Origin: Rhizaria sp. SCN 62-66
Taxonomy: Eukaryota
DNA: 64,000 bases
Reading direction: 5' to 3'
Assembly: GCA_001724265.1 (NCBI GenBank)
Contig: MEDY01000066.1
Location: 62,001-126,000, forward strand
Both the position numbers and the translations under genes were made by a program. Numbering within the stretch: position 1 is the first letter of the stretch; each line of letters starts with the position of its first letter. The notes beneath the pieces were generated by a model, which saw nothing but the letters and a program-made list of their open reading frames with translations, searched no databases and was not told the DNA's origin. This document shows positions 11,033 through 57,798 of this stretch, one piece after another.

Positions 11033-12951
11033 TTAAAGCGGCTTTTGTGCGGAGATAATAGCGTAGTGCATTACTCCTTTCTTTGCAACGAACCGCAGTG
11101 CAGCGGCCGTGACCAAGAACTTAATCCAGCGCACAGGCTTGATGAGCGAGCCGAATTGCGCGATATGACGCTATTAACACAAGCAAAATTAAACAAAAAC
11201 AAAATATTACGTATAATTTATCTGCATTCATCATGTTACAATCAGTTTGACTAATGTTTTCTTTCAATATAATCGATAAATCCAGCAAACAATGAATTAG
11301 TTTCATTTGTTGTCGCCAAACGTACATCAATGAAGCTCGCAAAGCCTTCAAATACGCGCGTGTGAACTTTCACGATGGAAACATTTATGAATCCAACATT
11401 TTGCAGCATCTCGGTGTACTTTGACGCCGTCGTGAGATTCTCGCGGGGAATAGACATCCCTTTCGCTGCGATACGCAGCAACTTCTCGCTCAAACCAGAG
11501 CCGGAGCTGCCGGCATCGGTGTGATCGTCGTACTGGCCGTCGGGGAGGACAAGATCGCTCAGAGCAAGCCGTCCCCCGGGACGCAGGGCGGTGATAACGT
11601 CAGCAAAAAAGCGCGCGCGTTGCTCGAAGTGGTACGCCGTGTCGACGCAGACAACGCAGTCGACAGTTCCGACAGGAGCGTGACCGACGGGCGTGTGACG
11701 AGCACGGGCTGAGCGTGCAATAATGCTGTCGGTGAAAGCTCCAGAATTGCTGTTCGCGTCGGTGGGGCGTGAGGCAGTGCTATTCATAGGCTGAACGACA
11801 TCGTCAATGTCACTGTCATAGTCACTGTCATTCATCGTTGAGCCACACGTCTGTTGCTGCTGTTGAGAGAGAATCGTGAGAATATCACTCGAACTGCCTT
11901 GTAGCAACGTGACGCTCTCACATACAACATCGGCATCAGGTACATTAAAATTGCTTGCATTGCCAGCATTCCTCAGCCGTTGATTGCATTGCTGTTGCAA
12001 TAACTTAAGCCGCCTCTGAGCCGAGACGACTTGCGTCGGCGCTAAGTTGACCCCAACAATGGACCGCGGCACTGCCCACGCATGCGGGCACAGCACTGCG
12101 TCGCCATCTAACCGTGAGCACGCGGCTGACTGTGAGCACAAAAGCGACCGCGAGCACGGCGACCTCAGCGTCAGTCCTGCGAGCATGAAGAGCTAGTCGC
12201 CGCAGCCGAACCCCACGCTCAGCACGCGGTCGGGCGCGGCCACCGCGGCGGCGGCGAAGACGGCGGACGCAAGGGACGCGCACGCGGCCGCGTATGTAAC
12301 CGCGCCGGGCACGCTCGCTGACAGCGGTGGGGGCGGCGTCGCTGTTGCAGCAGTCGCAGCGGAAGCAGAGTCAGGGTCAGCGTCTGAGTCAGAGACGGCA
12401 TCAGAGACAGGCCAGAGTCCCAAGTTGCCCCATTGTGAGTGATCAAGATCAAAATTCAGCAAAACGTGCGATAAATCAAAAATGCCGCTTTTGCCAGAGA
12501 CCACCGACGCAGAAGAAGCAGTGGCAGTATTGAGACCAAGACTTGCTGATTTGCCCAGGTCACTATTTTCTGATGTACTCGTTCTATTGGAGCTGCTCAA
12601 CGATGCCACCGCAATGTCGCGAGAGTTAAAAAGCGCGGCAAGCGCCGGAAAGGCTGCGGCGTGCGTGATCGCGTGCAGCGGAGAGAGCGGCGACCAGAGG
12701 AGAAAGCCTAGAAGAAGCAGCGCCGCCCCAGCAGGGTCGCACAAACCGAGCGCCACGGACGCGAATACACGCGCACAAACGCGAACAGCTGTGAATATAG
12801 CTAAATCAATAGAATATAATCCGAGAAATGCGGCGCTAACCGCGTAGGCGTAGGCTGTGTCGCGGAAGAGAGCGTATAAGAGAGTCGTTGCGAAGACGGC
12901 GTAGTGTGGAGGGGCAAGATTTATCACAAGGATCGCCACACCATGTAACAT
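11033..12951 (-). CDS. Class I SAM-dependent methyltransferase with N-terminal hydrophobic segments, ~587 aa. Exons 12951-11326 and 11170-11033; in-frame TAG at 12195-12193
   Basis: WGNLGLW, motif I VLSVGFGCGD*LF, VGVNL, DCVVCVDTAYHF, LRPGGRLALSDLV, LQNVGF. Intron 11325-11171 (GTACGT...TAG) gives the final exon RHIAQFG...YAIISAQKPL-TAA. The two listed ORFs (12193..12951 and 11251..12186) are in the same frame. Confidence 0.85.
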
Positions 12952-13266: not shown

Positions 13267-16200
13267 TTAGTTACTCCCAGCAGCAGCAGCAGTCTCCTTG
13301 CTGCCGTCAGCACTGTTAGCGCTAGCACTAGCGCTCACGCTCGCAACAGCGTTGCTAGCGGCGGCAGAAGTGGCCTCCTCGTTGGGCGTCTGCCAGTGCA
13401 GCCGCAGCCCGACCAGGTCGAGCCCCGCGAGCACCTTCTCCCACTCGCTGCCCACGGTCATGGAACTCGCGCCGGCACCCGTGTTGGTACCCGTGCTGCT
13501 CGCGGTGACCTCGGAGCTGCCGCTGTTGCTGTTATCAGTCGTACACGAAGTAGCCGTGTTGTCGACGTCGTCCCCGCTGCCAGCGACAGCGCTCACGGTC
13601 ACTGCCACGGTCACTGCCACGGTCACGCCCGCGGCCGCGGCCGCCGCCGCAGCAGGCGTCAGCTGAGGCTGCTGCGCCTGTTGCGCCAGCTTATGTGACT
13701 GTAACTGCGCCTGCGCCTGCTGCGCAAGGTGGTAGAGGTCCAGCGAGGCGACCGCGTCCTCGATGCTGTTGTGCGTGCCCTGCTGGATGCGCCGGCCGAG
13801 CAGCGCCCAAGTAAGGAAACGCAGCGAGACGAACTTGCGCGGGCCCTCGAACGCGGCCGCGGCGGGGCCCGCGAGCGTATTGACAGCAGCAGAGGCAGCA
13901 GAGCGAGAGCTAGAGCTAGAGGCGACAGCAGTTGTCGTCGTCGTACTCGCAGCCAACGGCTTCCCGCTCGCGTTGCTTCTAGCGGCGTTGCTGTTGCTGC
14001 TCGCGCTCGCACCAGCGCTTGCGCTGGTGCTGTTTCTCGCGCCGTTGCTGTTGCTGCTGTTGCCGTTGCTGGTGTGGGGGTGGAGGGGGCGGGCAAAGAT
14101 CTCGGCCGTGTCCCGCACCTGGGCCGCGGGCACGGTCAGGTTCAGCTAAACGTATGGCAAAACACAGAACAAAGAGACGGTAAAAAAAGGTGATACACAT
14201 GAGATATGACGTTAAAACACAAGAAATACACATTGAATATATACATGCCACCCCGTTCTATATATATCATTGCACAAACATGTCAAGAAATCGTTCGATT
14301 CATAGTTTCATATGCGGTACTTCGAATCGTCAATGAATGCGTCTGTGAAGTATGCGCCGTACCATTTGGAAGTCCTTCTTGAGCCCGTGTCCAACAAGCA
14401 CCGCGCCGCGCGCGTGCACGAGCCAAAGCAGCACCAGGTACACGGCCTTAAGCGACGTCAGTACACGCCCGTCGCGGAGGCCCGGGCCGCCGTGGCCGCT
14501 GCCGGTACCGCCAGAGGCAGAGACAGAGGCTGAGGGGGCTGAGGGCGAGAATTGCGACGGCAACGACGAGGACGAGGATGAGGACAAGGACTGGGCCGAG
14601 GACGGGGGCGCGGGGTCCAGGTCGCCGGCGACAATGCCGCTCCACTTGGTGAGGTAGTCCACCACCGGCTCGTGCGGCTGTGAGGCGATGTACGCGTCGA
14701 GCCACACAGCGCGGCTCCCGCTGCCGCGGCCCGCGCTGCCGCCGCCGTTGCTGTTGCCGCCGGCGCCTGCATCGGCGACGCCCTCGCTGTTGCCCGCGCT
14801 AATGCTATTACTATTGTTATTGTTATAGCGCGACTTGTTGTTCCTGCCGCCGCCGCCGCCCCTCGCGCTCGCGCCGGCGCCCGCGGCCGCCGGAGCAGCG
14901 GGCGGGGGCGGGAGGTCCCAGTCGCGGACGAGCGACACGCGCGCGAGTGCCAGGCGCGAGGGCTTGAGCACGCGGCCGTCCTCGGCGCGGCGCTCCAGCT
15001 CCACGCACACGAACTCGCAATCGAGCGCAAACCGGGCGCCGAAGGGCACCGAGCTCAGGTCCACGCCGAGGCTGCCGCCCGCTATGAAGGCGCTGTTGGC
15101 GGCCGCGCTCGCAGCAGCGGCGGCGGCGGCAGCGGAGGCGGCGGCAGAGCCGTTACTGCTGACAAGCGCATTGTTATGGTTATTGTTGTTATTCGTACCA
15201 TGCTGCTGCTGTTGTTGTTGTTGCTGGAGCGGCGGCATGGCAGTAAGCGCGAGCGCGAGCGCGTCGACCGACAGCGTGACGGGGTCGCGCAGCAAGCGCC
15301 GCAGCGAGGGCGCGGGCAGGCGCAGCGGCGGCGGGCGCACGGGCGGCGCCACGGGCGCGGGCGCGCGCAGCACAGCGCGGCGCGTGCGGCTGCGGCACGC
15401 GTGGTCCACCGCGGCCATGACGTGCCCCGCGCAGCCGCCGAGCGCGCAGCCGCTGCTGCTGTTGTTACCAGCGCCCGCGCCGAGGGGGGACGAGACGAGC
15501 GAGCGGACGCCGCCGCTGCTGCCGCCGCCGTTCGCGGTGTTGCCGCTGACGGGCGTCGACGGGTGCTTGCCGGCCGCGTACGTAGTGCGGAACGCCATCT
15601 GCTTACACGCACTCGCACTCATATCAGGACCAGCGTTCGCGTGGGCGGTGTTGTTGATGACGGCGCCCGTCGGCGTGGTCGTGTAGCTCTTGACTGCGGC
15701 AGAGCCGGCGCCGGCCTTGGCTTTGCCCTCGGCCGCAGCCGCAGCCGGGCTCGAGAGGCCGCATTGCGACTGCGACCGCGAGTGACCGTGAGCGCAGACC
15801 TCACTGTCGTGCCCGTGACCGTGGGCGTGGCCGTGGGCGTGACCGTGGGCGTCAGCGTGGTGTTGATACAGTCCGGCTGCGGTGCCCGCCCCCGCGCCGC
15901 CCGCGGCCTTGGCGAGGACCTGCGCGGCGTGGCGCTGTAGCGCGCCCACAGCGTCGACGCGCGTGTAGAAGAGCGCGCACGGCTGCTTCCACAGGTACGC
16001 GTACGTCAGCGCCTCCGTCACGCCGTACACGCGCGTGCCCGCGCCACTGACGCCGGAACCCGAGCCAGAACTCGTGCCGTTACTTGTGACAGAACCAGCG
16101 GTGGTAGCGGCAGCGGCGGCGGCGAGGGCGTTAGCATGGTTGACCGCGGCCGGCGACATGTCGACGTTGGCCGAGGGCATCACGCAGAAGTCGTTGACCG

Positions 16201-19200
16201 TGTACCAGCCGCCGCCACCGGGGCCCCAGCCGCCCGCGGCCGAGAACGCCTTCACCGGGGCCGCTACATCACCGTCGGGGTTGCTTGGACTGAGCACGCG
16301 CTGCGCGGGCGCAGGCGCGTGCAGCACGTGCGCGACGAGGTGCTCGCCGGCGACGCGGTGCAGCGCGCTCGCATCGCGGCCCGCCGCCGCGGCCGTGTCC
16401 GTGATGTGCGCGATCGCCGCCGTCAGCCGGTACACGGCCGTCGTGCCGGCGCCTGCGTGTCGCGAGAGCAAGGGGGAACAAAAGCGACAAATGGGCGTGA
16501 GAATAAAATAGTAGTGGTGAGTAATTGAGATTCAAGTAAAGTTTGAGTCAAGGTTATAGAAATCCAGGTTTCATAAAACTGCTGTCCAATGATGCGATCG
16601 TGCGTACCTAAAGACGCGTACAGCGCGGACGACGACGAGTTGAGCAGTCGGCCGCTGGCCCCACTGGCCGCCGCCGCCGCCGCCGCAGTGCCGTTGCCGC
16701 TCGCACTCGCGGTGACGCCGCTGGCGCTCATTGTGGCGCCCGCGGCGTTGCCACCCGGGTTCGAGCTATTGGCGCTACCACTGCAGCCGTTGGCGTTGTA
16801 CGCGTTAACGACCGCGCTGGGGGTGACGCGCCCGGCCAGCGTCGAGCGGCGCGCGATCACAGACGGCGCCGGCAGGCGGTAGTGCGTCCTGTTCGCGCCC
16901 GCGCTCGCCCGGCCACCGTCGCTGCAGCAGGAGTCGTCGTCGTCGTCGCCGTCGTCGTCGGTGAGGACGAACTCATCGCAAACAGAGCTGCTGCTGTTGG
17001 TGGTGTTGTTGTTATTATTGCCACTGTTCCTGACGAAGCTGGGACTGCTCGCGCCGTTAGCAGCGCTGCCACTGCCACTACTACTGTTGTTGTCAGTGGC
17101 GGCGCTGAGGTCGTGGTAGTCGTCGTCGATGGGGTCCGCCTCGTCGCTAAGGGTCGGCAGCAGCAGCGGGTTCACAAACCACTCGCTCTCGCCGCCACAG
17201 TCACTGGTAATAGCAGCGACGGCGGCGGCGGCGGCGGCGGCGGCGGGGTCGCCACCGGGGCCGTTGCCCGCGCCGCCATTGCCGCTGCCCGCGCTGAGGC
17301 TGGCGGCGACGATGGCCCTGCTGCGCTCCCGCACGGCGGCGTACGACTGCGCAATCAGGGCCTCGGCCTCGGCGTCAGAGTCCACGCGCCGCACGCGCAG
17401 CCCGAAGCCCACCCCCTCGCCCGCGGCAGCCGCGGCCACGGCGGCTGCCGTCGCGGCGCTAATGCCGCTGCCGCTGCCGTTGCCGCTGCTGCCGCTGCCG
17501 CTGAGGCCGGCGGCCGCGGTGGCGGCGCTGGCGTTGGGGGGGTTCGGGCTAGACCCGGAGCCAGTGCCAGCGCCAGAGCTGGCGTTGATGGAGTTCGAGA
17601 CTGTCGCGTTGCCGTTGCTGCTGTAGGCGTCGTCGGTGGCGACGGTAGAGGTGTCGTCGCCGTCGATGGCGATGACAGGCGGCAGCCAGGCCCAGCTGTG
17701 CGCGGAGGCCTCGAGCGGCAGAGCCCACAGCGGGTCGCTCGCGGGGTGCACGAACAGACTAAGGGGGAACAGGTCCGTGTAAGTACCCTGGGCACCGAGA
17801 GTACCATGAGTACCCTGAGCGCCCTGAGACTGGGACTCAGGGCACTTAGACGCGTGGGGCGGAAGGTAGTCGAAATACCTGTCGACGGCCACAGCGGTAT
17901 TCTCACCCGCGCTCGCACCCGCGCTCGCATTGGTGATGCTGTTGTTGTTGTTGCTCGAGACTGAGGAGAACGCGGACGCGAGGTTGACCGGCACAATCCC
18001 ACTCGCAGTCGTGCTCACACCGTCACTGCTGACGCTGCCGGCGCTCGTGTTGCTGTACAGACCCGCCTGGAGCTGCTTGTGTGCAGCGGGCAAGAAAGGC
18101 GTGCGGCCGCCGATGCTGGCGCCAACCGCACTCGCGCCCGCGGCACCAGGCGCAGTCGCGGTACCACGGGCGTTGCTGTTGCTGAAGCCGCTGCTGCTCG
18201 TGGCAGAGCCCGCATGGCTGTTATTGCCCGTGGCCGCGGCAGTGGAGTAGACCGCAAAGGGCGCGGCGCCGACGTACGGCGCGGACGCTGCGGCCGCGGC
18301 AACGGCGGCGCGTGCGGCAGCGGAGGATGCGGCGCTCGCGAAGCCCCCGGGCTTGCCGCCCGCGGCGACAACGCTGACAACGCTAACACTGGCCACGCCC
18401 GACGCGTCGCCGCCGCCGGCAGCGGTGGGCGAGACGAGGGCGGTCGACGACAGCAGCGCGGGGGCGCCGAGAACGCCGGCGACGCTGCCGCCCGCGCCAC
18501 TACTGCTGGAGGCGTTGCTCGCGCCTGCGTTGCTGCTGCCGCTGCCACCGCTGGCGGCCGCGGCCGGAGTGCGCCAGAGCTCCAGCTCGGGCTCCTCGGT
18601 CGCGTTGCAGAGCACGGTCAGCACGGGGGGCAGCGCAGTAACGCGCTTGGCCAGCCGCTGCAGGTGGCTCGCGCGGCAGCTGTGGCACCACAGCCGGCGC
18701 AGAGAAGTTTCGCACAGCGAGTCGGTCAGGACTTGCGCGAACGTCGCCGGCGCCGCCGCCGCCGCCGAGGCAGGGTGGGCGACGGGGGAGGCAAGGCGCT
18801 GCGACGCGACGGGGTAGGAGAGCTTAACGGAGAAGCTGCCGCCCACCCGGACGCTGCGGTGGCCGCCGGTCACCACGGGCAATACAGCCGTCGCCGTCGC
18901 CGCGGCCGCGGTCGCCGTCGCGGTGAGGGAGTTACTATGGGAGGGGGCGGGGAGCGTGGAGGTGATGGTCATCGTCGTCGTGGCGGTGGTCGTAGCGCGG
19001 CCCTGCGAGCAGCGCAGCTCGTCGATCACGCCGACTTCGTGCAGAACCTAAAAAGTGCGAGATCGTCCAAGTGAGACAAAAAACAAAAATTAAAGACATA
19101 TGAGGCAGAAGATCATAGACTTGCAAGTTGAAAACAAAAACATAGAAAGAAATAAAACTCTGTTTTTCACGCGAATACAACGTTTTTACTTCAAAATATA

Positions 19201-22200
19201 ACAATACTAAAAAGCTATACAGTCTTTGACGAAATTACATGTTCTCGACCATACCTGCGGGACGGAGACGAGCCTGCGCTTGGCGACCTTGATGCTCTTG
19301 CGGAGCCCGGCGCGGGCGCGCTCCAGCGTCGCAAGCGCTGCCACGGCGGCCTGCGAGGGCACCGCGGCCGCGGCCGCCGCCGCGACGGCAGCGGTGAGCG
19401 CGCCCTCGCACTCGAGCAGCGACGCCTCGAGCCGGGAAAGCTCGGAGCGCGCGTCCCGATCAATGTTTGTGTACAGATACCGGATAAAATTCTGGATCTT
19501 GGCGTTGAGGATCGCGGTTGTGGGCGCCTCGGTGGGGTCCAAGACGCCGATCAGAGCTGCCTGTGGCTGGCCCAGCGCGCGCAAGAAGTTCCTGTGAATT
19601 TAACAAAGTGCGAATACAGTATTGTTATGTTAGATAAAAAGAGCATCATATTTAACAATCGAATTTCGTTAAATACCCAAACATTAAAGTTAAAATCCAA
19701 TGAATGAAGATATACATCGACAAATCACTTCAAGTCGTCTCTGTGATCTCATCGTACCTGGGCTCGACAGTGCGGTGACCGCGCTGCGTGAGCTGCAACG
19801 CGAGGAAGGCGAGCTCGCACGTCAGGCACTTCTCGGCGGGGCACGCGTGCGCCATGACGAGCGCGCGGAATGCGGGCGCCGCGCACAGCGCCTGCAGCGC
19901 GGCGCCGCAGTACGCGTGCGGGAGGAACGCCGTGAGCCCGACGAGCGGCGTGGCATTGTAGGTGTCGAAGTCGATCGACTCGAGCCCGAAGCGCGGGATC
20001 TTGACGTGCACGCGCGCGTACTCGCGGCCCACGGCGATGGCGCGCCGCAGCGGAGACGACAGCAGCTCCGCGAACGACTGCGTGTTGATGGCCTTGTTCA
20101 CGCGGCCGGCCTTGGCGCCCGCGCCGGGGACCGCGGGCAGGAAGCGCGCCAGAGAGGCCTGGTGGTTGCGCAGGAATGTCGTCAGGCGGCGGTCGGGGAA
20201 CGGCGCAGTCATCAGGCCGCCGCCGCCGCCGCCGCCGCTGTTGTTATGGCTGTGGTGGCCGTGGCTACTACTGATCGCAGCCGCCGCCGCCGCAGCAGCA
20301 GCGGCGGCGGCAGTGGCGGCGGCGGCGGCGGCGGCTGAGGGGTGGTAAGGGCCCCCCCCGCTGGCAGCGGCAGCGGCAGCGGCGGCGGCGGCGGCGGCGC
20401 GCGCGGCGGCGGTGGTGGTGGCCGATGCGGCGGCGAGTCCCGGGATGAGGCTGGGGTCGACGGGGGGGATGAAGGGCGGCGTCGTGAAGGTCGCCGCCGG
20501 CCAGCCCGCCCAAGCCGACAGCGCGGGCGCGGGCGGAGCCAGCGGGAAGAGCGAGAGGTCGGGCAGCGGGACAGCCGCGAGGTTCGACGCGTAGGCCGAC
20601 GATGACAGCAGGGAGACGGAGGACGGGTGCAGGTGGCTGTCCTTGTGGGAGCTAGCCGCCACGGTCACGTTGTTGTACGCGTCGAAAAACGTGTTGCCGC
20701 CGCCACCGCCGCCGCCGCCGCCGTTGCTGTTGTTGTTGTTCGCCCTGTTGTCCAGTCCGCTCTGGTTCCCGCCGTGGCCGTGGCCGCCGTGGTGACCGTT
20801 GTTGTGGCCGCCGTAGGGCGAGACGCTGAGCGCCCGCTTGGCCGCGGCGGACATGTAGGCCGGGTCCAGCCCCGCCACTGGTGGCGTCAGCGGCGGCGGC
20901 CGCGCGAAGGCCGTGGGCGCAACGAGCGCGCCGGTGGCGATCTCTGGCCGCTGCCCCTCTGCGAGCAGCTGGGAGGAGCCAAGCAGCGTGAGCCCGCCAG
21001 CCGAGTCGCCCACCAGCGCGCACTGGCCGGACCGCGCGACCGCAAGCGCCGTCGCCGCGTGGAAAGCCGAGGGCAGCGGCACGTGCGCCGTCGCGGCGTG
21101 CGCCACGGGCGGGGACGCCTCAGCGACGGCCAGGCTGCCAGTAGGCGAGAGTAGCAGTAGCGAGGAAGAGAACTTGGGAAGGAAGGCGGCGCGGTAGATG
21201 CCCGCCGGGTCGCGCACGGCCGACACTATCGCCGTGGGCTTGAGCGTCGCCAGGTCGAAAGTGCGCACGAACGGGTCCGGGCGGCCCGCCTTAAAGGGGG
21301 AGTCGACCAGCCCGCGGATCGGGTGGTGCACCCACGGGTTCGGGTGGCTCCACACGCTGTTGCCCGCCGCCGCAGCACTCGCGGTGGCTCCAGTGGCGGC
21401 ACCTGTGGAGCTCACAGTCGTCGTCGCCGCCGTCGTTGTCGATGCGCCCACGGCTCCTGTTAGGTCACTACTGGTACCCGTGGCGGTACTCGTGGTGCTG
21501 TTGCTGTTGTTGAGGAGCGAGGCGAGGTACGCGTGCGTGTTGAACATCGCGGGCGCGCCCGGCTGGCTGAAGGGCTTGACCGCGGGGTGCATTGTGCATA
21601 CGGCGATGGACCGCTTGACCACGATCTGAGACACGATCATGGATCCGACGCTGCCGCCCACGCCCACAGACGCACTTGCACCCGCACAAGAGCTAGAGCT
21701 AGAGCTAGAGCTTGAACTCGACTCAGAACTCGAGCTGCTGCTGTTGCTTGTGACGTGGATGACGTCGACGAGCGAGAGATCCTCGAACGACAGCGCCACA
21801 ATGCAGCCCCGGTCCGTGCCGACCAGCACGAGCCCCTGCGCGGCGGCGACGGTGATGCACACAGGGAAGCCCGTGGTCTCTGCGGTGAAGCGCGCGGGCG
21901 AGCGCAGCGTGGGCCTGTTCTCGGCCAGGTTGAACACCACAACGGCGCTCGCAAAGCCCGCGCCGGGCCCGAAGCCGACGAGCAGTTCGACGGGGTCGCG
22001 CGCGTCAAGCGGGGCGGCACAGCGCGCGTCGCGGAACTTGACGCCGCGCGAGGCCTGCTCGAGAACGCCGCCCTTGGAGTGCACGCGCAGCGAGTTGGCC
22101 GACAGCGACGCGACGCCGCCGCCGTGCGCCAGCGGGAAGAGCTCCAGCACGGCCGTGGCGTGCGCGGCGAAGGCGCTGTACTTGTGGAGGTCGGGGAAGG

Positions 22201-22999
22201 TGAACGAGAGCACGCGTCCGTCGTTAGTGCCAGCCCACACCAGGTCCTCGCTGGGGTCAAAAGCGACTGTGAGTACAGGGCTCGTGACGTGTGGCGTCAC
22301 CGTCGTCGCCGCGGAGAGCGGGTAGAAGGACCGCGCACCGCCCAGCGAGCCGGGGCCGCCCCCCAGACCACCGACCCCAGCGGCGAGACCACCACTACCA
22401 CCACCACCAGCCGCGGCAGAGGCGGAGGCGGCGGCGGAGGCTGAGAGGGAAAGCTGGGGCCGGTGTAGGGGGTGGCCATGCGGTATGCCGTGGGCCGGGT
22501 GGCCGTGCGACATCGGACCGCCGCCGCCGCCGCCGCCGCCGCTGTTGTTGCCGCTGATGTTGTAGCCTGCGACTGGGGAGGGGTACTGCGGGTAAGGGCC
22601 AGCGCCCGCGCCCGCGCCCGCGCCAGCGAAGGGCCCGGAGAGGCCGATCGAGGTCGGGTAGGAGCCAAAGCCGACGGCGCTGCTGCTCCCGTGGGGCATC
22701 ATGTGCGGGGCGTAGGCCTGGTTGCTGCTACTGTTGCCATAACTCGCGTTCGCAGCAGAGGCTGGGGGCTTCATGATATTGTACGGGGGGTTGCTGCTGT
22801 ACGCCCCGCCGCCGCCGCCGGCCCCCGCAGCGGCGCCCGACGGGCCGGAGTAGCCGGTGTAGCCCAACCCTGCCGCGGGGCCGCCGTGGCCGCCGTGGCC
22901 GTGCGCGCTCGCAGTGTTTGCACTGTGTGAGCTGTGGGGGGGCGCGTTGACGCCACCGTATGGGCCCGGGGGCGGGCGCTGCATGCCGTGGGGGTGCAT
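13267..22999 (-). CDS. PAN2: PAN2 poly(A) deadenylase subunit (WD40 + UCH-like + DEDDh exonuclease), ~2995 aa. Exons 22999-19758, 19591-19255, 19047-16608, 16452-14363, 14145-13267
   Basis: VAFDPSEDLVWAGTNDGRV (WD40). FGLESIDFDTYNATPLVGL...YCGAALQAL, C-PAEKCLTCEL (UCH-like). FALDCEFV, VVDYLTKWSGI, VGHGLKKDF, SLRFLTWALLGRRIQQGTHNSIEDA (exonuclease). Four GT-AG introns keep the frame (8988 nt); TAA stop. The start codon is uncertain. Confidence 0.92.
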
Positions 23000-23685
23000 G
23001 GCGGGCGGCAACGGGGGGTAAAACCCGTTAGAACGCGCGGAGTTGTAAGAAAACGACTGTGCAGGAACGCTAGCAAAGGGAAACGAGCGGTGCTGGCAAG
23101 CAGCACTGGGGTCGGGAAGCGGGCGGGGAAGAGGACGGGGCACGAGGTGTGAGCGGCAGCGAATACTGCAAGGTAGACGCACGTTGTAAGCGCATAAATT
23201 GAAATATAACAAAATCGTTTCACTATTCATTGTAAATATCATATCTATATCCGAATATATCAAATATATCCTGTGCCAGCATACGCCGAAGTGAGGCTTC
23301 TTTCAAACTCGATCTGACTCCTCACGACGCAGCTCCAGTCCCACGGTCATCTTGCACTCGAAAAGTTCATGCACAACAGGCTTAATAGGCTATAATCATA
23401 AGACTTGATGATGAAACTTGAATATAGTTTTATTATGAGGTTTTTATATATTATATCAAAATATCGCTTTTACTGACGGAGATCACAGTGATGAACTCGA
23501 AGTCCGATTTCAGCAAAACAAGCGTTTTACGTTTGTGGTGAACTCTACTTTTGGAAGTATAACTGAGTAATAATGCACTGGAACGTTTTAAGAATAAGAG
23601 GATCTCACAAATGCAGTGTTTTTGCATCCTACCAGTTTGCTTTAGTTTCTACAGTAGCACGCCTTGGTTGCTTTCCAGAGACGGG

Positions 23686-28263: not shown

Positions 28264-29024
28264 GGGCTCCAGAGAGATCTCTCTGAGAGAGGTCTTCGCT
28301 GAACGCCAACTAAAGCGAAATGAACAATAACAAGCGCGGGAGAGAGGGATGGATGATAGAGGGACCTTGAGTCCGCCAAGCAAACAGAGCTTAGGGTGCC
28401 ATTGCGCATTGTTGTCGTCTCCCCCACTGACTGACTTGACTTTGGTCGTCAGCAGACGCAGAAAATGGGGAAGTAACAATGCCTCCACTTGAGGGACTCT
28501 TTGACTGTGGACGAGAGGAGAGTAGACCGCGAATAACAAACAAAAATGACACAATTGCCCTGAAGAGACATAGGCAATATGTTTCTCATCACTACGAGTA
28601 CATAGACGGAAAGTGCCGTACGCACACAGGTTGCGTATTTCCAAATAAATTCACAATTTTTGACTTCGCTGACGCCACTTCGCAACTTGAACATCTTACG
28701 CATTTGCGCGAGTATATGCACTTCATGCTTACTTATCGCATTAACAACTTGATATGTCATTTATCATGACTAATAATACGTTATATTGCAGAGATATCGA
28801 TATTTACTGGGATTACGTTCGTCAAGTGCTGCTTCAAAATCAGCGTAGCGGACGTGGCAAAGCGTTGCGATGACTAGCTTCGAGACGATCTCAAAATCGG
28901 CCTGACTTGCAGCAAGTGCAGCGTTGTGTAGCTTCCGTCTATGCATTTATCCTTTTCGATTATGATATTCAAGCTTATATTATATCTACTCCCTTCATTA
29001 TTTTTTTCTCTTGAGTTTAGGTAG

Positions 29025-32732: not shown

Positions 32733-33029
32733 GTATGTCTCTGTTTCATGCATTACGCGTTATTTCAGCACTGTATCTGTATTGTGTCAATTCCGCGTTT
32801 TCTCCTGCTCGCTTTTGTGCCCCCAAAGGCGTGTTTTCCGGGTTCGCTTGGATCTGCTCCCCTTGTCTGATGCGTGCCCCGCTTTTCCAACATTACTCCC
32901 TCTTGTTGCCCCTAATTACGTCTCTCACCTTTTTCTTTCGCTCACATGCCTCTTTTTTCCCTTTCTCTTCTCTTTTTCTCTTCTTCTGCCTCTGTCTTCC
33001 CCGTCAATTCTCTCCGTCTGCCCTGTTAG
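32733..33029 (+). other. Probable 5'-UTR intron of EF-1alpha
   Basis: AG|GTATGT donor, long polypyrimidine tract, and a TAG acceptor 14 nt before the ATG at 33043. Confidence 0.55.
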
Positions 33030-33042
33030 TTTCTCAAGCATC

Positions 33043-34644
33043 ATGTCTGCCAAGGACAAGATTCACGTCAACCTGGTCGTCGTCGGCCACGTCGATGCCG
33101 GTAAGTCGACCACCACCGGCCACATCATTTACAAGTGCGGTGGTATCTCCAAGCGCCAGATCGAGAAGTTCGAGAAGGAGTCCGCTGAGATGGGCAAGGG
33201 TGCCTTCAAGTACGCCTGGGTCCTCGACAAGCTCAAGGCTGAGCGTGAGCGTGGTATCACCATCGACATCGCCCTCTGGAAGTTCCAGACCGACAAGTAC
33301 TACTTCACCATCATTGATGCTCCCGGCCACAAGGACTTCATCAAGAACATGATCACCGGTACCTCCCAGGCCGACGTCGCCATCCTCGTCATTGACGGCT
33401 CCAACTACGAGGCCGGTATCTCTGATGACGGCTCCACCCGTGAGCACGCCCTCCTCACCCACACTCTCGGTATCCGCCAGATCATCGTCCTCGTCAACAA
33501 GGTCGATGCCTTCAACTACCAGATCGAGAAGTTCAACGAGATCAAGGCTGAGATCTCCAACGTCCTCGCCGATGCCGGCTACCAGAACGTCGACAAGATC
33601 CCCTTCCTCCCCGTTTCCGGCTTCAACGGTGACAACATCATCACCATCGAGAACGACCAGGGTGTCAACAACCTCCCCTGGTGGAAGGGTAACACCGTCA
33701 AGCAGCAGCTCGACGAGATTATCCCCCCTGCCCGCCCCTCCGACCTTGCCCTCCGTCTCCCCCTCCAGGACGTCTACAAGATCGGCGGTATCGGCACAGT
33801 CCCCGTCGGCCGTGTTGAGACCGGTATCCTCAAGCCCGGCATGGTCGTCATCTTCGCGCCCACCCAGTACACCACCGATGTCAAGTCCATCGAGATGCAC
33901 CACGAGCAGCTCGAGCAGGCTTGCCCCGGTGACAACGTCGGCTTCAACATCAAGAACCTTTCCGTCAAGGAGATCGCCCGTGGCATGGTTACCTGCGACA
34001 CCAAGAACGACCCCGGAGCTGAGGTTCCCTCGTTCGAGGCCCGCGTCATCATCATGAACCACCCCGGTGAGATCCACGAGGGTTACACCCCCGTCGTTGA
34101 TTGCCACACTTCGCACATTGCCTGCAAGTTCCGCCTCATCCGCGCCGTCATCGACAACAAGGCCTCCACCGCCAAGTCCGTCGTCGACGAGTGGAACACC
34201 TCCAAGGGTCTCTTCGGTGTCAACGGCGATGCCCTCATCGTCGAGATGGAGCCCTCCAAGCCCCTCTGCGTTGAGGCTTTCACCCAGTACGCCCCCCTCG
34301 GCCGCTTCGCTGTCCGTGACATGCGCAAGACCGTCGCCGTCGGCTTCATCAACGCTGTTACCCGCCGCGTTGTTGAGGGTAAGACCAAGAAGGAGGTCCG
34401 CGTCCCCGCCCCCGACACTGCCGCCATCGAGGAGCAGCGCAAGAAGTACGCCACCGAGGCTAACGCCTTCGCTGAGCAGCTCGCCAAGGCTGAGGCCGAG
34501 GCTGAGGGCAAGAAGGACAAGAAGGACAAGAAGGACAAGAAGGACAAGGACGACAAGAAGGACAAGAAGGACAAGGACGACAAGAAGGACAAGAAGGACA
34601 AGGACGACAAGAAGGACAAGAAGGAGAAGAAGGACAAGAAGTAA
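33043..34644 (+). CDS. EEF1A: Translation elongation factor 1-alpha (divergent, with a C-terminal Lys/Asp-rich extension), 533 aa
   Basis: [99 protein letters not shown]. Strong C/G-ending codon bias; TAA stop. Confidence 0.97.
34510..34641 (+). repeat. Coding tandem repeat (AAGAAGGAC units; 27-nt KKDKKDKDD unit x3) at the EF-1alpha C-terminus
   Basis: Read directly from the sequence. Confidence 0.95.
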
Positions 34645-38786: not shown

Positions 38787-41735
38787 TCACTTCCACAGCG
38801 ATGCGCCCCACTTGGCGACGGGCCCGCCCTTGGCCACGGCAACGGCGACGGCGACGGTCCAGGCGCGTTGGGCCCACTCCATCGCAACGGGGTCCTCGCG
38901 CAGCCTGCTCACGATCACCGCCACGGCCACGGTGAGGCCGACATGGATCGCGAGCTTGAGCAGAGCGCGGACAATGCGCCACAGCACGGACAGGACGCGG
39001 CGCCAGAGCGGCCGCGGCCTGGGTGCCTGCTTACCGTGCGCGCTGGAGCAAGTGGCGCAGTTGCTGTGGTCGTTGGCAGCATTGGCAGCACTGTTAGCAG
39101 CAATGATACTGTTGCTGCCGCTGGTATTGTGCAAAGCAGAGAGCACAGGCGCAGTCGCGGCGTTCACGTTGACGGCCAGCTGCTCATAGTCGCTCACTGC
39201 ATCGCCCTTGCTCTTGCTACTGTTTACAGCAGCAGCAGCGTGCGTCGCAGTATTCAGTGCAGCGCTGGTCGCCGCCTCCGCAGCCGCCTCGGCCTCCCCC
39301 GCGGCCTCAGCGGCCTCCTCGGCCGCNNNNNNNNNNNNNNNCGGAGCCGGCCTCGGCCGCCGCGGCCCCGGCCGCGCCCGCCGCGGCCCTGGCGGCGCCC
39401 GCGGCGCGCTGCGCGCCCTCCGCGGCCGCCTCCGCCGCGCCGGCCGCGGCCCGCGCGCCCGCAACGGCACCCACGACGCTGTGCGAGGCTGCCTCTAGCG
39501 CCTCGAGCCGCCGGTAGAGCCGGAACAGGTGCCGCTTGACCGCGATCTCGGAGCGAGCGCCCTCGCGTGCGAGCAGTTCGTCGCCCGCGCCGCCCGTGGC
39601 CGCGGCGGTCGAGCCAGTGGCGGGGGGGAAGTAATACTTGCGCGCGTCCCCGCCGGTCTGGGCCGCTGCCGAGTCAGCAGGAGCAGAAACACCGCTAGCA
39701 GCACCATGCGACGCAGCAGCAGAGTCAGCCGCAGCCGACTCGGCGCCTTGCGCTGCCGCCTCGGTCGCAGTGGCCGCGGCGGCCGCGGCGGCGGCGCCGG
39801 TGCGGAGGCGGTAGCGCAAAAGGCTCTCCTCGGCCAGGTGCTGCGACTGGGCCAGCAGCTCGGTCAGGCGGTGGCGGCGCTGGCGGTCGAGCGAGCGGCG
39901 CGTGATGTTCTCACTGTTGCCGCCCGCAGCAGCAGTGGCCGGTGCAGTCGCAGTCGTGGAGGCAGAAGCAGTTGCGTCAGCGATGTTGTCTTTCGCTTCA
40001 TCGTCGTCTTCATCGTCGTCAGCGTTGGCGTTGGCAGCGGCAACGGCGGCAAGCAGCGGCGCAGGCACAGCACACAAGCTACTGCTGCTACCGAGACTAT
40101 AGCCAGCGTTAGCGCCGGTGCCGATACTTGCCCGAGTGCCCGCATTATTGCGGCTGCTTTCGGTCTCAACCTCGCCGGTGCCGTTACTGTCCCCGGTGTT
40201 GTTGGCGAACACATCGGAGCTGTGCAGCGACACGTGCAGGGCGAGGTGCGGCTCGTCACACTGGGGCGGCAGCGCCTCGTGGAGTGCGACGCGGACCGAC
40301 GACGGCGAGGGCGCGCCCAGGCTGCCCGTGCTCACGGTCATCGCGCCCCCGCCCAGCGCGGCGCGCACGTCGCTCAGCTGCCGCGCGCGCGGGGCCGGCC
40401 GCGGGAGCGCCGCGTCGGGCCCCGGCCGAGAGCTGCTGCTGCTGCTGGTGCTGCCCCGGGTGATGGTGTAGCTAGATGACGGACTGAGGGGGCTGGGGCT
40501 CGAGACGGTGGCCGAGGCTGAGACTGGAGCGGGCGCGGGCGCGGGGGCGGGGGCGAGCGCGGGGACAGCAGTGGCGGAACTAATGGCAGCGACGCCAAAC
40601 GCGTTCTCGTGGACGCCGCGGCTCGGCGTCGCGCTGTTGCTGTCCTTCACAGCCGCAGCCACAGCCGCCGCACTGTTGTGACTAGGAGTGTTCGCGGAAC
40701 TCGTGCCGGTACTCGTGCTGGCCCGCATGGGGCTGTGCGGGGCGGGCGAGGAGCCGCGGCTGTGGGTAAACGGGTCTGTGTTGGTCAGGTACGAGTGCTT
40801 GTACACTCTCTTGCCATCGGCGCTGTGGGTAGGACTGCTGGAGGGAACGTCGCTCGGAGGGAAGGCGCCCGGAGAGCGGGGAGCACGGATAGGAGACAAC
40901 GAGGACGACGACGAAGCAGCAGCAGCAGCGGATGCAACGGGAGAGTTTGAGTCATCGTCAGTGTCCAAAGCAACGTTGATGACTGCACCGACACTCACGC
41001 TCCCATCATTGGGAGCAGCAGCGGCTGTCACCATGTTCGCGCTAGCGTTGGTGTTGATGCTATTGTTGTTGTTAGCGGCAGCGTCGGCGTCAGCGTCGGG
41101 CAGAGCCACCAGGCCGGCGGCCTCGGCCTTGCGCAGCAGCGCCAGCGTCGCCGCCTCCGCCGCAGTCAGCCGGGCCGCGACGCCCGCGTTGCCAGCGGGG
41201 TTGGCGGTCGCCGCGGCGCTGCGAACAGGGCCAACGCCGGGAGTCTTCTTAATCGCGCTGTTCGAACCAGCAAAGTTAGATTGAGTGTTCAGAGTCGCAG
41301 TGCCGGCGTTCGCGGTCACGGCCGTGCGGGCGCGGGAGCGGGCGGTCGCAGGGGTCACGAACGCACTGCCCGGGCGGCTACTTGCGCCCACGGCTCTCGA
41401 CGCAGTCCGACTCGCACTGGCACACGCAGCAGGCGTGTTGACATAGCCCTGAGTGCGGGGGCGCGCCGGCGTGGGGGCGGCAGAGACGGCTTGCGATTGC
41501 GACTGGGACTGCGTGTCTTGCTGCGAGTTGAACACAGACGCAAACGCGATCTTGGCCGTGTGGTCGCCGCCGTTGACGTCGCCAGTGCTGACAGCGCTGT
41601 GCACGACGTCGTTCGCGGCCGCGGCGGCGACGGGGGCGAGAGCGGCCGCCTCGGACAGCAGCGCGTGCAGCTCAGTGGCGTACTCAGCCGCAACGCTACT
41701 GTTCTTTGCGGTACTCGCGTTGCTGCTGCTGCTGT

Positions 41736-51953: not shown

Positions 51954-54900
51954 ATGCCCCCACCTTGGCGCCGCGCGCTATGGTGGCTGCGCTGGTCTCT
52001 GCCGCTCGTTGCCGCGCTGCTCGCAGCCGTTGTCACCACGTCCGCAGCGTTTGCAGCCGAGCCCACTCCAGCCCCCGCGCACGCCACTATGACGTCCGCA
52101 GCCGCAGCAACTTCACCCACACAAGCCCCCGCGCTTGTTGCAAGTGTCAGCAACGTACTGAGCGGGGACAGAGCTGGCGGCGCTGATAGCAATAGTCCAC
52201 ATGACAAGACTGTTGTCACTCCCTCTCGGTTCGCTCGCGCGCAGCAGTACTTCACCGCACCGTCCAACTGGGACCACTACATCCTGCAGCTCCTTATCGG
52301 ACGCTACCACAGCTGGAACCACTTTACTGTGAAGCACCTGATCGTGTTCGTTTGCGCGGTCACGGCAACGCTGTACGTGTATATCATGATCAGCCGCTTC
52401 AAGGCGGTGCGCTTCGGCAAGTACTTGAACAAGATTGCGCCTATTCTGTTCCCCATGACACAAGACGGCCTTCCCTTGAACGGATTCGTCTCGATGATTG
52501 CCACGGTCAACGCGACGACGGCCATTCGCGCCGCGCGGCTCCTGTTTCCCGCGCCGCTGCAGCCCGACACCGCGGGCGCGCCCGCCGTCAAGCACTCGAA
52601 GGAGTACGCGAACTCTTACATCAGCAGTCAAACGCAGAGCACTCTAAGTGGCGCTGGTAGCGTTGTGAGCGACGCAGGGGATAAGCAGGGTGCGCGCGGC
52701 AGAGGCAGCCACAGCAACAACAACAGCGCTGCTGCTGCTGCTGCTGTTGCTGCTGAGACCGCGGCTGTTGCCGTTTTCGCAGGCAACAGGACTGTGTCTA
52801 TCCCCGTCTGGGCAACTCTGGCCCCGTATGCAAGCATTACCACGCTGTACAACACTCACAACGCTGCTTACAGTAGCAGTGTTGACAGCGTTAGCAACAA
52901 CAAACACATACCCTCGCACTCGCGCTTGCAGTCGCAGTTGCTCACTTCAGAGCAACACCTGCCACAGTGCGGCGCTGCTGGTGCTGCCACATTGACTGCC
53001 AACGCTAGCGCTGGTGTTGCTGCGTTGCCAGAGGCCACGGTGCCGGTTGCGGCTGTGGTCGCTGCTGCCGCAGCCCCCGTTGTTGCACAGGTACTTTCAC
53101 TTCGGATTTCTTTGCTAAATTTATGTCAATTTAACCAAAACGTACATTTTTTAATCCTATACTGTGCTTGTATATGAAATTTTACCCATTTTCTCAACAA
53201 TTGTATGAACATATTTTTAACTCTAATCTTTGTGTCTGTGCCGTCTCTCTCAGAGTCACATGGCTGGCTGGGCCTTGCTGTCCCCCACTGCGACCGGCTC
53301 AGTCACAGCATCAGCGCCCTCTATCACGAATAACACTGCTAGCAGCAGCAGCCATAGCGCGAGTATTGCCCACAACCAAGTCACGCTTGGAGGCATCAGC
53401 ACGAATATCGCCTCCTACGGCCATGGCAACAGTGCTGCCTTGAGTCCTGCCGCCGCGGCCTCGCCTCGCAGCGCCACGAGCGCGGGCGCTCACGCTCACG
53501 CCGGGGCAGTGAGCAGTGGCAGTAGTGACACCAGTCCCCGCTCCGGCGCCGGCGCTGCACCGCACGCCGCTTCCCCGCTCGCGCCCCATCACCAGTCCCC
53601 CACCCCCAAGAGCCCCCCCCCCGGCGCCGGCAACGCCGCCACGGCGCCTACCGCGGCCGCCAGCCCAGCCGCGGGCGAGGCCGCGGCGGGCGCCCTCACC
53701 GCATCCGCCCCTGGACTTGGCACCGGCCTCCCGACGTCGAGTTCGTTCGTGGTGGGCTCGGGGCGCGGCGCAGCGCGGCTGCCGCTGCTGCCTGTGCCAG
53801 TGTATGCGCACAACCACCCCTCGATGCGGCTGCTGCGTAACGCGCAGGCCAAGGCGCAGGCCGAGCAGCAGCAGCAGCAGGCGCAGCATACGCCGGCGAC
53901 GCCCGCCGTCGGCGCAGGCACAGGCGCGGCGGCAGCGGCGGCCAATGACGGCGGCAAGATGGGCCACGACGACGACGACGACGAGGCTGACGCCGAGGAG
54001 AAGGACGACACGGATCTCGGTGCGGCTGCGGCGGCTGCGGAGGCCGACGGCGATGGCGCTGGCGGCAAGAAGACGGCGGACAACGCCGCTGGCCTAGCTG
54101 CAGCTGATGAGAACGCTTTAACAGCAACAACGGCGACGACAGTGACAACGGCGAATGCCACCACCGGTGCCGCAGGCTCTGCTCCCGGCGGCGACACGAG
54201 TGGCTGCTGCTCGAGCTCCAAAGCCAAGCAGCCCCGGCGCAAGCTCACGCGCGCTGACAAAGCCAGCGTCATTGCTGCGCTGCCCATCACGCCAGCGCCG
54301 GCGCCCGCGCTTTCCTTGGCTCCGGAAGCGGCGGGTGCCGGCGACTCGGCCGCCGCTGCGGCGAGCAGGGGCGTAGTTGGCCCTTTAGGCACCTCGCTCG
54401 GCGATTCTGCAATGAGCAAGAACAGCCGTCCGGGGGCAGCAGCTCATGCTGGTGTGGCCGTGGCGAGCAGCGGTGTCGTGAAGTTTGTCGACAACAGCGG
54501 GCCAGTGCTGGTGGCGGTGCTGCTGCCATGCTCGCTGCCCACCATCACTCTCGACCCCTTGACTGAGAGCAATGTCAACAAGAGAGGCAACAATAATAAC
54601 TGTAAGACGAACAAGAGCTGCGTTCAGAGCGCGAGGGCGAATGCGAATGATAACCCGAACATGTTGAGTATCAACGTCCTTGGACCGGGTGTCAACAGCG
54701 TTGTCGGTGATTGCAACAATGATGCTGCCGTTCTTGGTTGTGGCGGCGTCGCTCGTGGCGCGAACAGTTTGAACCACAACATGGGCAGTGTTGCTGTGGA
54801 TGCCCCTCTTGCTGCGGCTGATGTTGCTGCTGCGTCTGCCAATGCGATCGTTCAGGAGGAGCTCGACGACGACGAAGAGGAGGAGGACGATGGTGTTCTG

Positions 54901-57798
54901 GTTTACAACTCGATTGCTGCCGCTAACATGAACTCTTTGAATAACAACGCGAATGCTGCTGCTGCTGCTGTTGGCGGCGGCGTTTACGCTGCTCCAACGG
55001 CGGCAACAACCACCACGGGCGCGCCTCTCAACAGTGATCACGCTCTGCATCAGCCGAAGCCGCAGTCGCAGTTGCTTTATTCTCATTCGCAGCTGCAGCA
55101 GAGACTTGGCCTCGGCCTCGGCCCTGACCAGCAAGCACAGACTCAAACGCAGACCCAAGCACGGACGCAGGAGCCAGCGCAGGGACAGGGTTCCGGCTTG
55201 AGTCAAGGGCCAGGTCCTCGGCAACGGCGGCGCAACAAGCACAACTGCACTGGAGGCTATGCTGCCGGTGCTGGCGCGAGCCGCCGCCCGGAGTGGCGGT
55301 TCAGTCCCATCGCGCTGTCGGCAATGCAGAGCGCGACCGCTGTTGCCGCGCCCGCCGCCATCGCGACTGCGCCCGTTGCGCCCGAAACCATGTACACGAC
55401 CGCGCTCCCGCAGCCACTGCCGCAGTCTCAACAGCCCCAGTCAGAGGCTGGGACGGCGGCGGTGGCAACATCTGTCGGCGGCAGTGACCCCGTGAGCGGC
55501 GTCGTCACTGGAGCGGACGCGGGCGCGGCGGCGGCACTGTGGGCGCTGCTGGGCGACGCGTTCGCGACGCTGGAGCGCGACTGCTCGCTCTGCGGCGGGC
55601 TCCCGCTGCCGCTGCCGCAGCCGCTGCCGCTGCCGCAGTTTTATACGCAGTTGCAGCCGCATGTGGTGGTGTCGCTGAGTCGGTCGGGCGGGTATAACCC
55701 GATTTACCCTCCGCATTGCCACTCGCACGCCGCGGACGCTGTCGCGCACGGCGTTGGACTGCGAGTGAGCGAGTACCACGGCTGCCCTCAGTGCGGGAAC
55801 GGGTCTCTGCGCAAGAGCAAGCACAGTCATCATAACCACCGTCATCACAGCAGCGCAGTTAACAGCGCCGTCAATAGCCCGAACAAGCAGTTCAAGCACG
55901 TTATTTCGAGCTATAACAACACTGGCACAACGCTCTACTCACACCAGCAGCAGCAGCTCCAGCAGTTGCAACAGCAGCAGCAGCAGTACCATGCTCACAG
56001 CCCGAGCCGCATCGTCGCCGACCGCGGCCTCAGCTCTGACCGTGAGCAGCACAGCCCCGACCGCGCCCACGGTCGCGACCGTGAGCAGCGGTCGCAGCAG
56101 CCGTATCGGCCGCAGTATCAGCGCGGGCGCGACCGCGGGCGCTGGGCCAGCCGATCCGTGGCGATGGAGGGCGCGACCGTGAGCGACATCGGCGGGCACA
56201 GGGTCTCGCTGTTGCCACTGTTCGCACCTCCGTCACCGCAGCCTGTACAAGCGCCCATCCAACAGCAACATCTGCATCAGCAGCAACAACCTCAGCCCAT
56301 GCAACCGCTGGCAGCTATTGCAGGCCCTCCAGTCGTGAAGTCTCTCGCAACGGCGACGGCGAAAAACAGCGCGAGCACCGCGAGCGCGAGCGCGAGCGCG
56401 AGCACAAGCACCGCGGCCAGTTCGTGGTGTTTGCACAAGTGCGTGACGGAGACGCTGTCTTGCCGCTGTTTGCTCACACTCACGTCTTTTGCCGCACCGC
56501 CGACACCGCCTTTTGCGGATCCTCCCACTGCATCTGACAACAGCAACGCTGATGGCACTACACAAGCACAGCAGCAGCTCCCGTCGTCATCGTTGCCACA
56601 GCCACGGCCGCAGCCGCGCCTGCTGCCGCCGCCCGCGGCCCCGCAGCCCCCGCGCGTGTCGGTCCCCTCGGCGCCGCTGCTGCTCTCGTACCCGCGTCTG
56701 CTCGCCGCGCTACCCACGGTCACGCGCTGGGTCGTCGCGCGTGCGGTCGCGCCCGCCGCCGCCGCCGCGCGCGCCGCTCTTAACGCAGCCGTCTCCGACA
56801 ACAGTTTCAATACCAGCGCGAATGCCAGCGTTACATTGCCGTCAGGCGCAAATGCACGCGTGAGCGGGCGCGAGCGCGAGCAAGAGCTCGGGTTCGAGGA
56901 GCAGCAGCAGCTGTGGCTGCGTGCGCGGCGGCGCCACGAGGCCCGCGCTGAGCTGCTGCGGGCGCAGTCGCGCGCGCTGCGGCGGCCGGGGCTGTTGTGG
57001 TGGCATCCAGACCCGCAGCGCCGCGGCGGCGGCTTCGGCGGCGACCTGGCCCGGCTGCTGCTCACGGTGAGCGCCGCCGCCGGGATCGGCAGCGAGGGCC
57101 TCGGCGCGACTGCGGCGGCGGCGACTCAGAACGAGCATGCTGCTGCTCATGCTGGCGCTGGCCACAGCCGGAGCGCAAGTGATGGTGAGCTGTTCAGTGC
57201 GAGCGCGGGCGCGGGTGCGAGTTCGAGTGTGAGTGAGGGTTCCAGTGGCGATGGTGGTGCCAGACAGCGAAGTGTTGATGAGCTAGCATATGCCTATGCA
57301 TACTCGAGCTCTGCGTGTGCGCAGTCGCTTGCACCTGTGCTCCTGTCTCTCTACGCGTTGTACTCCGCTTCCGTTCCAATCCCGCATACTCACAACTTTG
57401 GTAACAGCACAAGCGCTCCTTCTAACGAGGTGACTGTGAGCAGCATGGGTACCGCTGTCACGGGCCAACTGACCGTTAGCCATCAAGATCTCCACTTGGC
57501 GCTCCACTTGCTGATCGCTCTTGCCCGCTGCACGCGGCGCGAGGCGTGGCGCGCGTACCATTCCGCGGCGGCCACTGCGGCGGCGGCAGCGGGCGCGGTT
57601 GCCGCGGCGGAGGCGGCGGAGGCCGAGGCTGAGGCTGAGGCAAGGGCCAGGGCCGAGGCGCAGGCTGAGGCTGAGGCGGAAGCTGCAGCCGCGGAGGCTG
57701 AGGCGGAGGCGCGGGCTGAGGCCGAGGCAGCTCATATGAGCTATAGCTACGTCAATCGCGACGGTAGTTTCTATGGCTATCGGTAGTACCCCAAGTAA
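51954..57798 (+). CDS. Large hypothetical membrane protein (signal peptide, one TM helix, long low-complexity region), ~1890 aa. Exons 51954-53090 and 53254-57798 (ends at 57786 if TAG is a stop)
   Basis: Hydrophobic N-terminus and a TM segment (LIVFVCAVTATLYVYIMI). Intron 53091-53253 GTACTT...CAG joins the two ORFs in frame. Ends CGG TAG TAC CCC AAG TAA. Confidence 0.7.

Follow-up and report, generated by a model that had tools for sequence, protein, structure and literature searches.

An in-frame TAG at the glutamine column of a predicted methyltransferase gene of Rhizaria sp. SCN 62-66

The methyltransferase locus and its TAG codon

The DNA analysed here, 64,000 nucleotides (nt) of contig MEDY01000066.1 (assembly GCA_001724265.1, Rhizaria sp. 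SCN 62-66, positions 62,001 to 126,000), is referred to below as the window and carries on its minus strand a two-exon methyltransferase gene with a TAG codon in frame directly behind the S-adenosylmethionine (SAM)-binding motif I (Table 1). From 12225 to 12184 the minus strand reads GTG CTG AGC GTG GGG TTC GGC TGC GGC GAC TAG CTC TTC ATG, which translates as V L S V G F G C G D * L F M, and the reading VLSVGFGCGD-TAG-LFML given in the initial annotation is thus borne out by sequence and translation. The TAG at 12195..12193 splits one frame into open stretches of 258 and 313 codons. Under the standard code the methyltransferase frame ends here, just past motif I, and encodes no complete methyltransferase domain; a TAG at codon 253 of 587 is a disabling lesion such as is expected of a pseudogene. 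Metagenome gene callers have split the TAG-bearing gene into two proteins, P0008 and P0007, and the locus may serve as a cautionary case in this respect.

Table 1. Features of the methyltransferase gene in the window (positions are those of the window)
Feature	Position	Strand	Basis and remarks
In-frame TAG, codon 253 of 587 of the methyltransferase gene	12193..12195	-	Sequence and translation; family glutamine column, start of the helix after the glycine loop
Motif I, VLSVGFGCGD (strand beta-1 and glycine loop), of a class I SAM methyltransferase	12196..12225	-	Homologue alignment
Exon 1, 542 codons: N-terminal hydrophobic region, WGNLGLW motif, motif I, TAG, lineage-specific inserts, methyltransferase core	11326..12951	-	
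Codons 254-296, adjoining the TAG: family-like LFML, then an insert of about 30 residues; poor codon usage	12064..12192	-	
Conserved core 3' of the TAG: VDCVVCVDTAYHFEQRARFFADVITALRPGGRLALSDLV	11548..11664	-	Pfam match, residues 414-463; invariant D437, A439, Y440, H441, F442, R445, P458, G460, R461, L462, D466
Phase-0 GT-AG intron, GTACGT...AATAG, 155 nt, 27% GC	11171..11325	-	
Exon 2, 45 codons and TAA stop (11035..11033)	11033..11170	-	C-terminal homology to P0003

The TAG cannot be removed by splicing, since it has conserved residues on either side and lies in sequence whose GC content is unlike that of introns. In the alignment of the related protein P0003 (GFGCGDQLFMLS) with GFGCGD*LFMLA, conserved residues abut the TAG codon on either side, and 30-nt bins around the TAG have 60-87% GC, compared with 27-31% in three verified introns. 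An intron spanning the TAG was ruled out on the grounds of these flanks (GFGCGD and LFML) and of the local GC content, and the earlier statement that no donor site is placed to splice the codon out is upheld by the same two observations. The insert of about 30 residues that follows LFMLAG shares its length and end motifs with a second relative, P0002; even if it were an intron, it lies 3' of the TAG and would offer no means of removing it.

The remainder of the gene is intact. Downstream of the TAG 358 codons are open (313 in the open frame and 45 in exon 2) with no frameshift, all 12 of the 12 near-invariant family residues of this part (conserved in at least 90%) are kept, and no second lesion was found anywhere in the methyltransferase gene. 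Alignment with homologues therefore agrees with the initial annotation, which had described the downstream motifs as intact and free of other damage. The final exon, said there to be correctly spliced and to end in TAA, is likewise confirmed by the gene model and by the C-terminal homology to P0003, with which it shares 16 of 35 residues (46%; E 1e-9). Mutagenesis of C to T resembling repeat-induced point mutation was considered and rejected: the TpA/ApT index is 0.61 and the (CpA+TpG)/(ApC+GpT) index 1.23, both in the range of the neighbouring genes.

The glutamine column and the protein family

A protein search against 1.84 billion representatives returned 778 matches at E values up to 1e-3. 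The 150 best of them, minus six (the window's own fragments P0007 and P0008, three short proteins and one of 1035 residues), were aligned, and in the resulting set of 144 homologues the TAG column is occupied by Q in 99, S in 23, E in 16, G in 2, T in 2, P in 1 and A in 1. The glycine columns of motif I hold G in 134, 142 and 137 of the 144. The closest relatives, P0002 (53% identity) and P0003 (46%), are the only ones above about 41% identity among the 1.84 billion representatives, and they carry E and Q, respectively, at this column. Moreover, 20 metagenome loci, relatives at about 22-47% identity only, were picked by the patterns QWGNLG[LF]W and [DS]VGFGCGD, both of which leave the TAG codon out. 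One of the 20 lacks the GFGCGD motif; in the other loci, several of them near-duplicates, the codon after GFGCGD is CAG (12) or CAA (7), that is, a glutamine codon in 19 of 19. The TAG thus stands in a glutamine column, and the motif VLD(V/L)GFGCGDQ, given in the initial annotation for related methyltransferases, is supported by homologues and metagenome loci alike.

The Pfam search and the structure modelling used a translation with Q in place of the TAG. This protein matches PF08241 (Methyltransf_11) with 28.2 bits (cut-off 21.2; E 3e-6), and the match is confined to residues 414-463, since the domain is split by inserts; no NCBIfam model or equivalog reached its cut-off for this protein. 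Compared as a profile, the family matches RebM (3bus) with E 3.7e-38, and MitM and a glucose O-methyltransferase with about 1e-36. An AlphaFold model of residues 158-542 (385 residues) reached a mean predicted local distance difference test score (pLDDT) of 77.3 and a predicted template modelling score of 0.79, with 182 of the 385 residues at pLDDT of at least 90. Foldseek searches with this model placed AtmM, RebM and MitM on top with probability 1.00 (AtmM 6uv6, E 1.2e-7; RebM 3bus, 7e-7), and phosphoethanolamine methyltransferases were also among the best structural matches. In the model a strand (85-89) is followed by a loop (90-94) and a helix (95-100), and the TAG position corresponds to model residue 96. 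The predicted fold is Rossmann-like alpha/beta, though only with the TAG read as a residue. The long inserts are predicted to be disordered, with pLDDT below 50 at model residues 106-123.

With a residue in place of the TAG, the gene product is a class I SAM methyltransferase of the RebM/AtmM/MitM group. It shares with these enzymes the glycine-loop motif I, the DxAYHF...RPGGRL core and the C-terminal W...YV.V.A.K tail, and differs from them by an N-terminal hydrophobic region of about 100 residues, which is also present in P0003, and by long low-complexity inserts. RebM and MitM do not have Gln after the equivalent of GFGCGD, whereas Gln at this place is typical of the subfamily of the window gene. 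The content of G or C at third codon positions (GC3) of the methyltransferase gene, 0.58-0.59, is the lowest in the window, where most neighbours have 0.72-0.89, and is taken as a sign of weak expression. The gene probably encodes a weakly expressed, membrane-anchored class I SAM methyltransferase, whose activity is predicted.

Origin of the TAG codon and rival explanations

We consider that the TAG is probably a young CAG-to-TAG nonsense allele. A single C-to-T transition would have turned the glutamine codon of the family, CAG, into TAG at codon 253. Under the standard code translation would halt after motif I and leave a product of 252 residues without nearly all of the Rossmann fold, in line with the earlier expectation that a stop at this point deletes most of it. 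The enzyme would then be lost in the strain or haplotype that carries the TAG, the gene would be dispensable, and the mutation would be too recent for other decay to have appeared in the gene. We infer the youth of the lesion from the 358 open codons, the retention of all near-invariant residues downstream and the class I fold predicted with Q at the TAG, and the weak expression suggested by the GC3 value fits dispensability. The ancestral codon and the loss of function are likewise deduced. The case resembles strain-specific nonsense alleles and young unitary pseudogenes in the single transition at a conserved codon, the low codon adaptation and the narrow distribution, and differs from them in that no second lesion and no measurable relaxation of constraint were found. 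A plain nonsense allele would be of local meaning only: an uncultured protist would have lost, in one strain, a membrane-anchored methyltransferase that is orphan-like.

Against a young nonsense allele weigh the constraint on the gene, the possible persistence of the TAG, the ends of related contigs at or around the codon, and the use of TAG elsewhere in the window. The constraint was estimated by comparison with a second strain, represented by contigs from a DNA run (X4) and from a polyA-RNA library (X5) and diverged by about 1.1%, over 1539 coding bases. The 17 substitutions found comprise 8 synonymous and 9 non-synonymous ones, and the ratio of non-synonymous to synonymous substitution rates (dN/dS) is 0.38 overall (P = 0.043 against neutrality), a value summed over both lineages since their split. 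Upstream of the TAG it is 0.46 (P = 0.20) and downstream 0.31 (P = 0.10), the latter an underpowered estimate from only 4 synonymous and 4 non-synonymous changes. All 9 of the 9 replacements fall at variable columns, the sole coding indel is an in-frame 12-nt deletion, and indels not divisible by three are confined to the intron and the flanks. The absence of a second lesion, the low dN/dS and the replacements at variable sites indicate that the gene was constrained until very recently, which is compatible with a tolerated TAG.

The 12-nt deletion, at 11798-11809 and common to X4 and X5, lies in a repeated GACAGTGAC... (DSDYDSD) tract.

A tolerated TAG could mean partial readthrough, in which near-cognate tRNAs or a weak suppressor would insert Gln (or Tyr or Lys) and leave the gene leaky. 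This explanation appears rather unlikely. In eukaryotes, C after the stop gives the leakiest, least efficient context for termination, and Gln is a common insertion at UAG; among the well-known leaky contexts are the tobacco mosaic virus (TMV) type, UAG-CARYYA, and that of murine leukaemia virus (MuLV), UAG with a pseudoknot. In the window the stop context is GAC-UAG-CUC-UUC, with a C behind the stop, and insertion of Gln would restore the family residue. The column also tolerates S and E (39 of 144 homologues), RebM and MitM have no Q there, and the part downstream of the TAG, at a dN/dS of 0.31, shows no decay. However, neither the CARYYA nor the CUAG readthrough motif is found at the UAG-CUC-UUC context, and the 126 nt from the TAG onwards form no stable structure (minimum free energy -50.4 kcal/mol, where shuffles average -52.3; z = +0.55). 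The stop is moreover conserved in no relative, P0002 having E, P0003 having Q and all 19 motif-bearing metagenome loci having CAG or CAA. The resemblance to readthrough of the TMV and MuLV type ends with the C after UAG and with Gln as the expected insertion: the window stop lies in the middle of a catalytic domain instead of at a gene end, and lacks CARYYA, a stable structure and conservation. Contigs of the X4 type from the polyA-RNA library lie on either side of the site (11510-12159 and 12319-12588) and are in keeping with readthrough, yet they miss the codon, belong to a different strain and may contain some DNA. Nonsense-mediated decay, provided that it operates in this lineage, would also be expected to act on the mRNA, because an intron lies 870 nt downstream.

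Quite improbable, too, is that the TAG arose as an error in sequencing or in the consensus, or that it represents an allele picked by the assembler at a site which is heterozygous or polymorphic, in a population that also has CAG. Depth in related runs is about 2-7. The contig of run X2 (X3 represents the same data) ends exactly at 12192, as a branch in the de Bruijn graph might produce, and breaks between 12139 and 12319 are seen in those of X4 and X5 too, which leave 12140-12224 and 12160-12318 uncovered, respectively, so that the codon at 12193-12195 is covered by none of X2 to X5. All of these breaks coincide with a block of 70-87% GC at 12190-12340. This block alone is a sufficient reason for the lost cover, and a branch at the codon could account for it as well. 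The lack of cover in itself favours neither side. An error in the consensus or an assembly slip is unlikely because the truncated product is recorded repeatedly, no intact allele is seen and run X1 contains all sampled words. Indeed, the exact product of 252 residues ending at the TAG is recorded from 3 contigs, the longest of 101,322 nt. A collection of 5.8 billion proteins, searched in the range of 311-993 residues, holds no near-identical full-length allele, and in an independent assembly of X1, a possible source of the sequence, 230 of 230 sampled words (1.00) were found. Protein searches returned only the window's own fragments, P0002 and P0003 as close matches, and an exact-pattern scan of prokaryote genome contigs gave 0 matches. 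The record of the TAG product on three contigs, together with the lack of an intact allele in that collection, also means that the TAG may persist.

It is barely credible that the gene acts as two polypeptides, a membrane part of 252 residues and a C-terminal part restarted at an ATG, which would reassemble into an enzyme. An ATG is available at codon 256 (TAG CTC TTC ATG), and P0008 and P0007 have been called from the locus; P0007, however, begins at a different, later Met. The break would fall between the glycine loop and its helix, within one Rossmann unit, none of the 144 aligned homologues is split at this point, and reinitiation after an open reading frame (ORF) of 252 codons is inefficient in eukaryotes. 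Pyrrolysine or selenocysteine was discarded as well, since neither would be viable for a eukaryotic UAG at a column of Q, S and E.

TAG codons elsewhere in the window and neighbouring genes

The initial annotation implied that TAG might be decoded as glutamine, and this did not find support in the window. No in-frame TAG occurs in 20 other ORFs (15,165 codons, with 391 CAG and 87 CAA). Because each of these ORFs runs from one stop to the next, what matters is whether a TAG joins any of them to a long in-frame neighbour; no such long extension was found for any of the 20, and TAGs upstream of them open at most 30 further codons. If TAG were interchangeable with CAG as a neutral synonym, the synonymous first-position ratio of TTG to CTG, 104:452, would predict about 90 TAGs. 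A scan by codon usage for stops with coding-like flanks (0.2 bits per codon), which was noisy, kept two TAG and two TAA. Of the in-frame stops that were followed up, a TAA at 63425 and a TAG at 42211 lie in AT-rich GT-AG introns, and a TAG at 29022 lies in a 5' leader. In the codon-usage scan the methyltransferase TAG itself was not retained, owing to scores of -0.49 and -0.35 over the 60 codons that follow it. The window thus argues against TAG as a sense codon, and the stop in the methyltransferase gene is unconserved and without a readthrough context.

Nevertheless, TAG is not proven as a terminator in the window either. The stops of 23 other ORFs are TGA in 13, TAA in 8 and TAG in 2, and some of them may end exons, not genes. 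One of the TAGs (57784-57786) ends an ORF of 1519 codons (53227-57783) and is followed three codons on by a TAA (TAG TAC CCC AAG TAA); the sequence 3' of it is AT-rich, with 33% GC, and resembles a real gene end. A second TAG within a glutamine-rich context lies at 104-106 on the minus strand, in a gene running from about 1046 to 1, where the translation reads ...RLRQQKKQQK-TAG-QHQQQQQQKQQQIQK (QHQQQQQQKQQQIQKISSDCELSDWSELNNTNNN) in a Gln/Lys-rich tail. A run of CAG and CAA and the open frame behind this TAG reach the edge of the window, and a donor-like GTGAGT lies near position 25. The GC content after it, 46%, is inside the range of real 3' ends (28-52%), and no homologues of this gene were found besides its own product. 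Either this TAG terminates its gene in the ordinary way, with a CAG-rich 3' end behind it, or it is another in-frame TAG in a Gln-like position.

A precedent for glutamine at UAG exists in Iotanema spirale, in which UAG is reported to encode Gln while UAA and UGA are stops (PMC5304391). The window shares with it a gene with an in-frame UAG at a glutamine column and the use of UAA and UGA to end genes. That the organism decodes UAG as glutamine in this manner, with very rare usage, is nonetheless highly improbable. It would agree with the position of the TAG at a Gln column, with the TAG at 104-106 in its Gln/Lys-rich tail and the CAG/CAA run in frame to the edge, and with the lack of any gene end in the window where the use of TAG is proven, the two cases being ambiguous. 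The same paper gives 204 in-frame UAG in 126 genes of I. spirale, and at least one in 348 of 730 contigs, and in Amoebophrya about half of the transcripts are reported to contain reassigned codons (PMC6394959). In terms of genes, the count for I. spirale corresponds to about 1.6 in-frame UAG per gene (PMC5304391), compared with one clear case in about 17 window genes; instead of many in-frame UAG enriched at Gln columns, the window offers one clear and one ambiguous case (104-106). Further points against such a code are the lack of any in-frame TAG in the 20 other ORFs, where about 90 were expected, the lack of a tRNA gene in the 64-kb window, and the base composition behind the TAGs that end the 1519-codon ORF and lie at 104-106.

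There is also a slim chance that this GC-rich, free-living wastewater eukaryote reads UAG as Gln at low frequency and keeps UAA and UGA as terminators; the decoding would be done by a weak suppressor tRNA-Gln(CUA) or by near-cognate tRNAs that work efficiently at UAG-C. If so, the methyltransferase would be functional and the TAG at 104-106 would be a second instance. The organism would then represent an early, low-usage stage of the decoupled UAG/UAA reassignment reported for Iotanema spirale (PMC5304391). Should the codon be read in this way, a reassignment of UAG to Gln could be seen at its onset, which is rarely possible, in a GC-rich eukaryote that keeps UAA and UGA as stops. The organism recurs in samples from bioreactors and wastewater, and the ambiguous-intermediate route of code change could then be tested in it.

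The runs that contain window sequence are labelled as bioreactor, wastewater and activated-sludge metagenomes. The coding sequences of the window are GC-rich (GC3 mostly 0.72-0.89) and are interrupted by AT-rich GT-AG introns of 155-207 nt with 27-31% GC. Recognisable genes are those of eIF3c, a PAN2-like giant, phytochelatin synthase, a SHIPPO-repeat flagellar protein, Misato and eEF1A, along with ACBP, Rce1-like, WDR55-like, CRT-like and CID proteins. The window comes from an uncultured eukaryote whose genes have introns and which also encodes a SHIPPO-repeat protein of the flagellum type. A stretch of 15 N at 39327-39341, either a scaffold gap or a masked stretch, lies at the 3' end of the long ORF of the ACBP-domain gene.

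The gene at 33028-34641 on the plus strand matches solved eEF1A chains with E of about 1e-181 from ORF residue 132 onwards, its stop-to-stop ORF reaching about 130 codons upstream of the likely start; an identity as eRF3 or HBS1 was considered and rejected in favour of eEF1A. An atlas search with this gene returned generic eEF1A clusters only. The PAN2-like gene (13270-23302, minus strand) has PAN2_N and UCH_1 domains and consists of four long ORFs joined by AT-rich introns. Its very long inserts rich in Ala, Ser, Asn and Gln would give a protein of more than 3000 residues, and it carries a C-terminal HNSIEDA, which we take to be an exonuclease-like motif.

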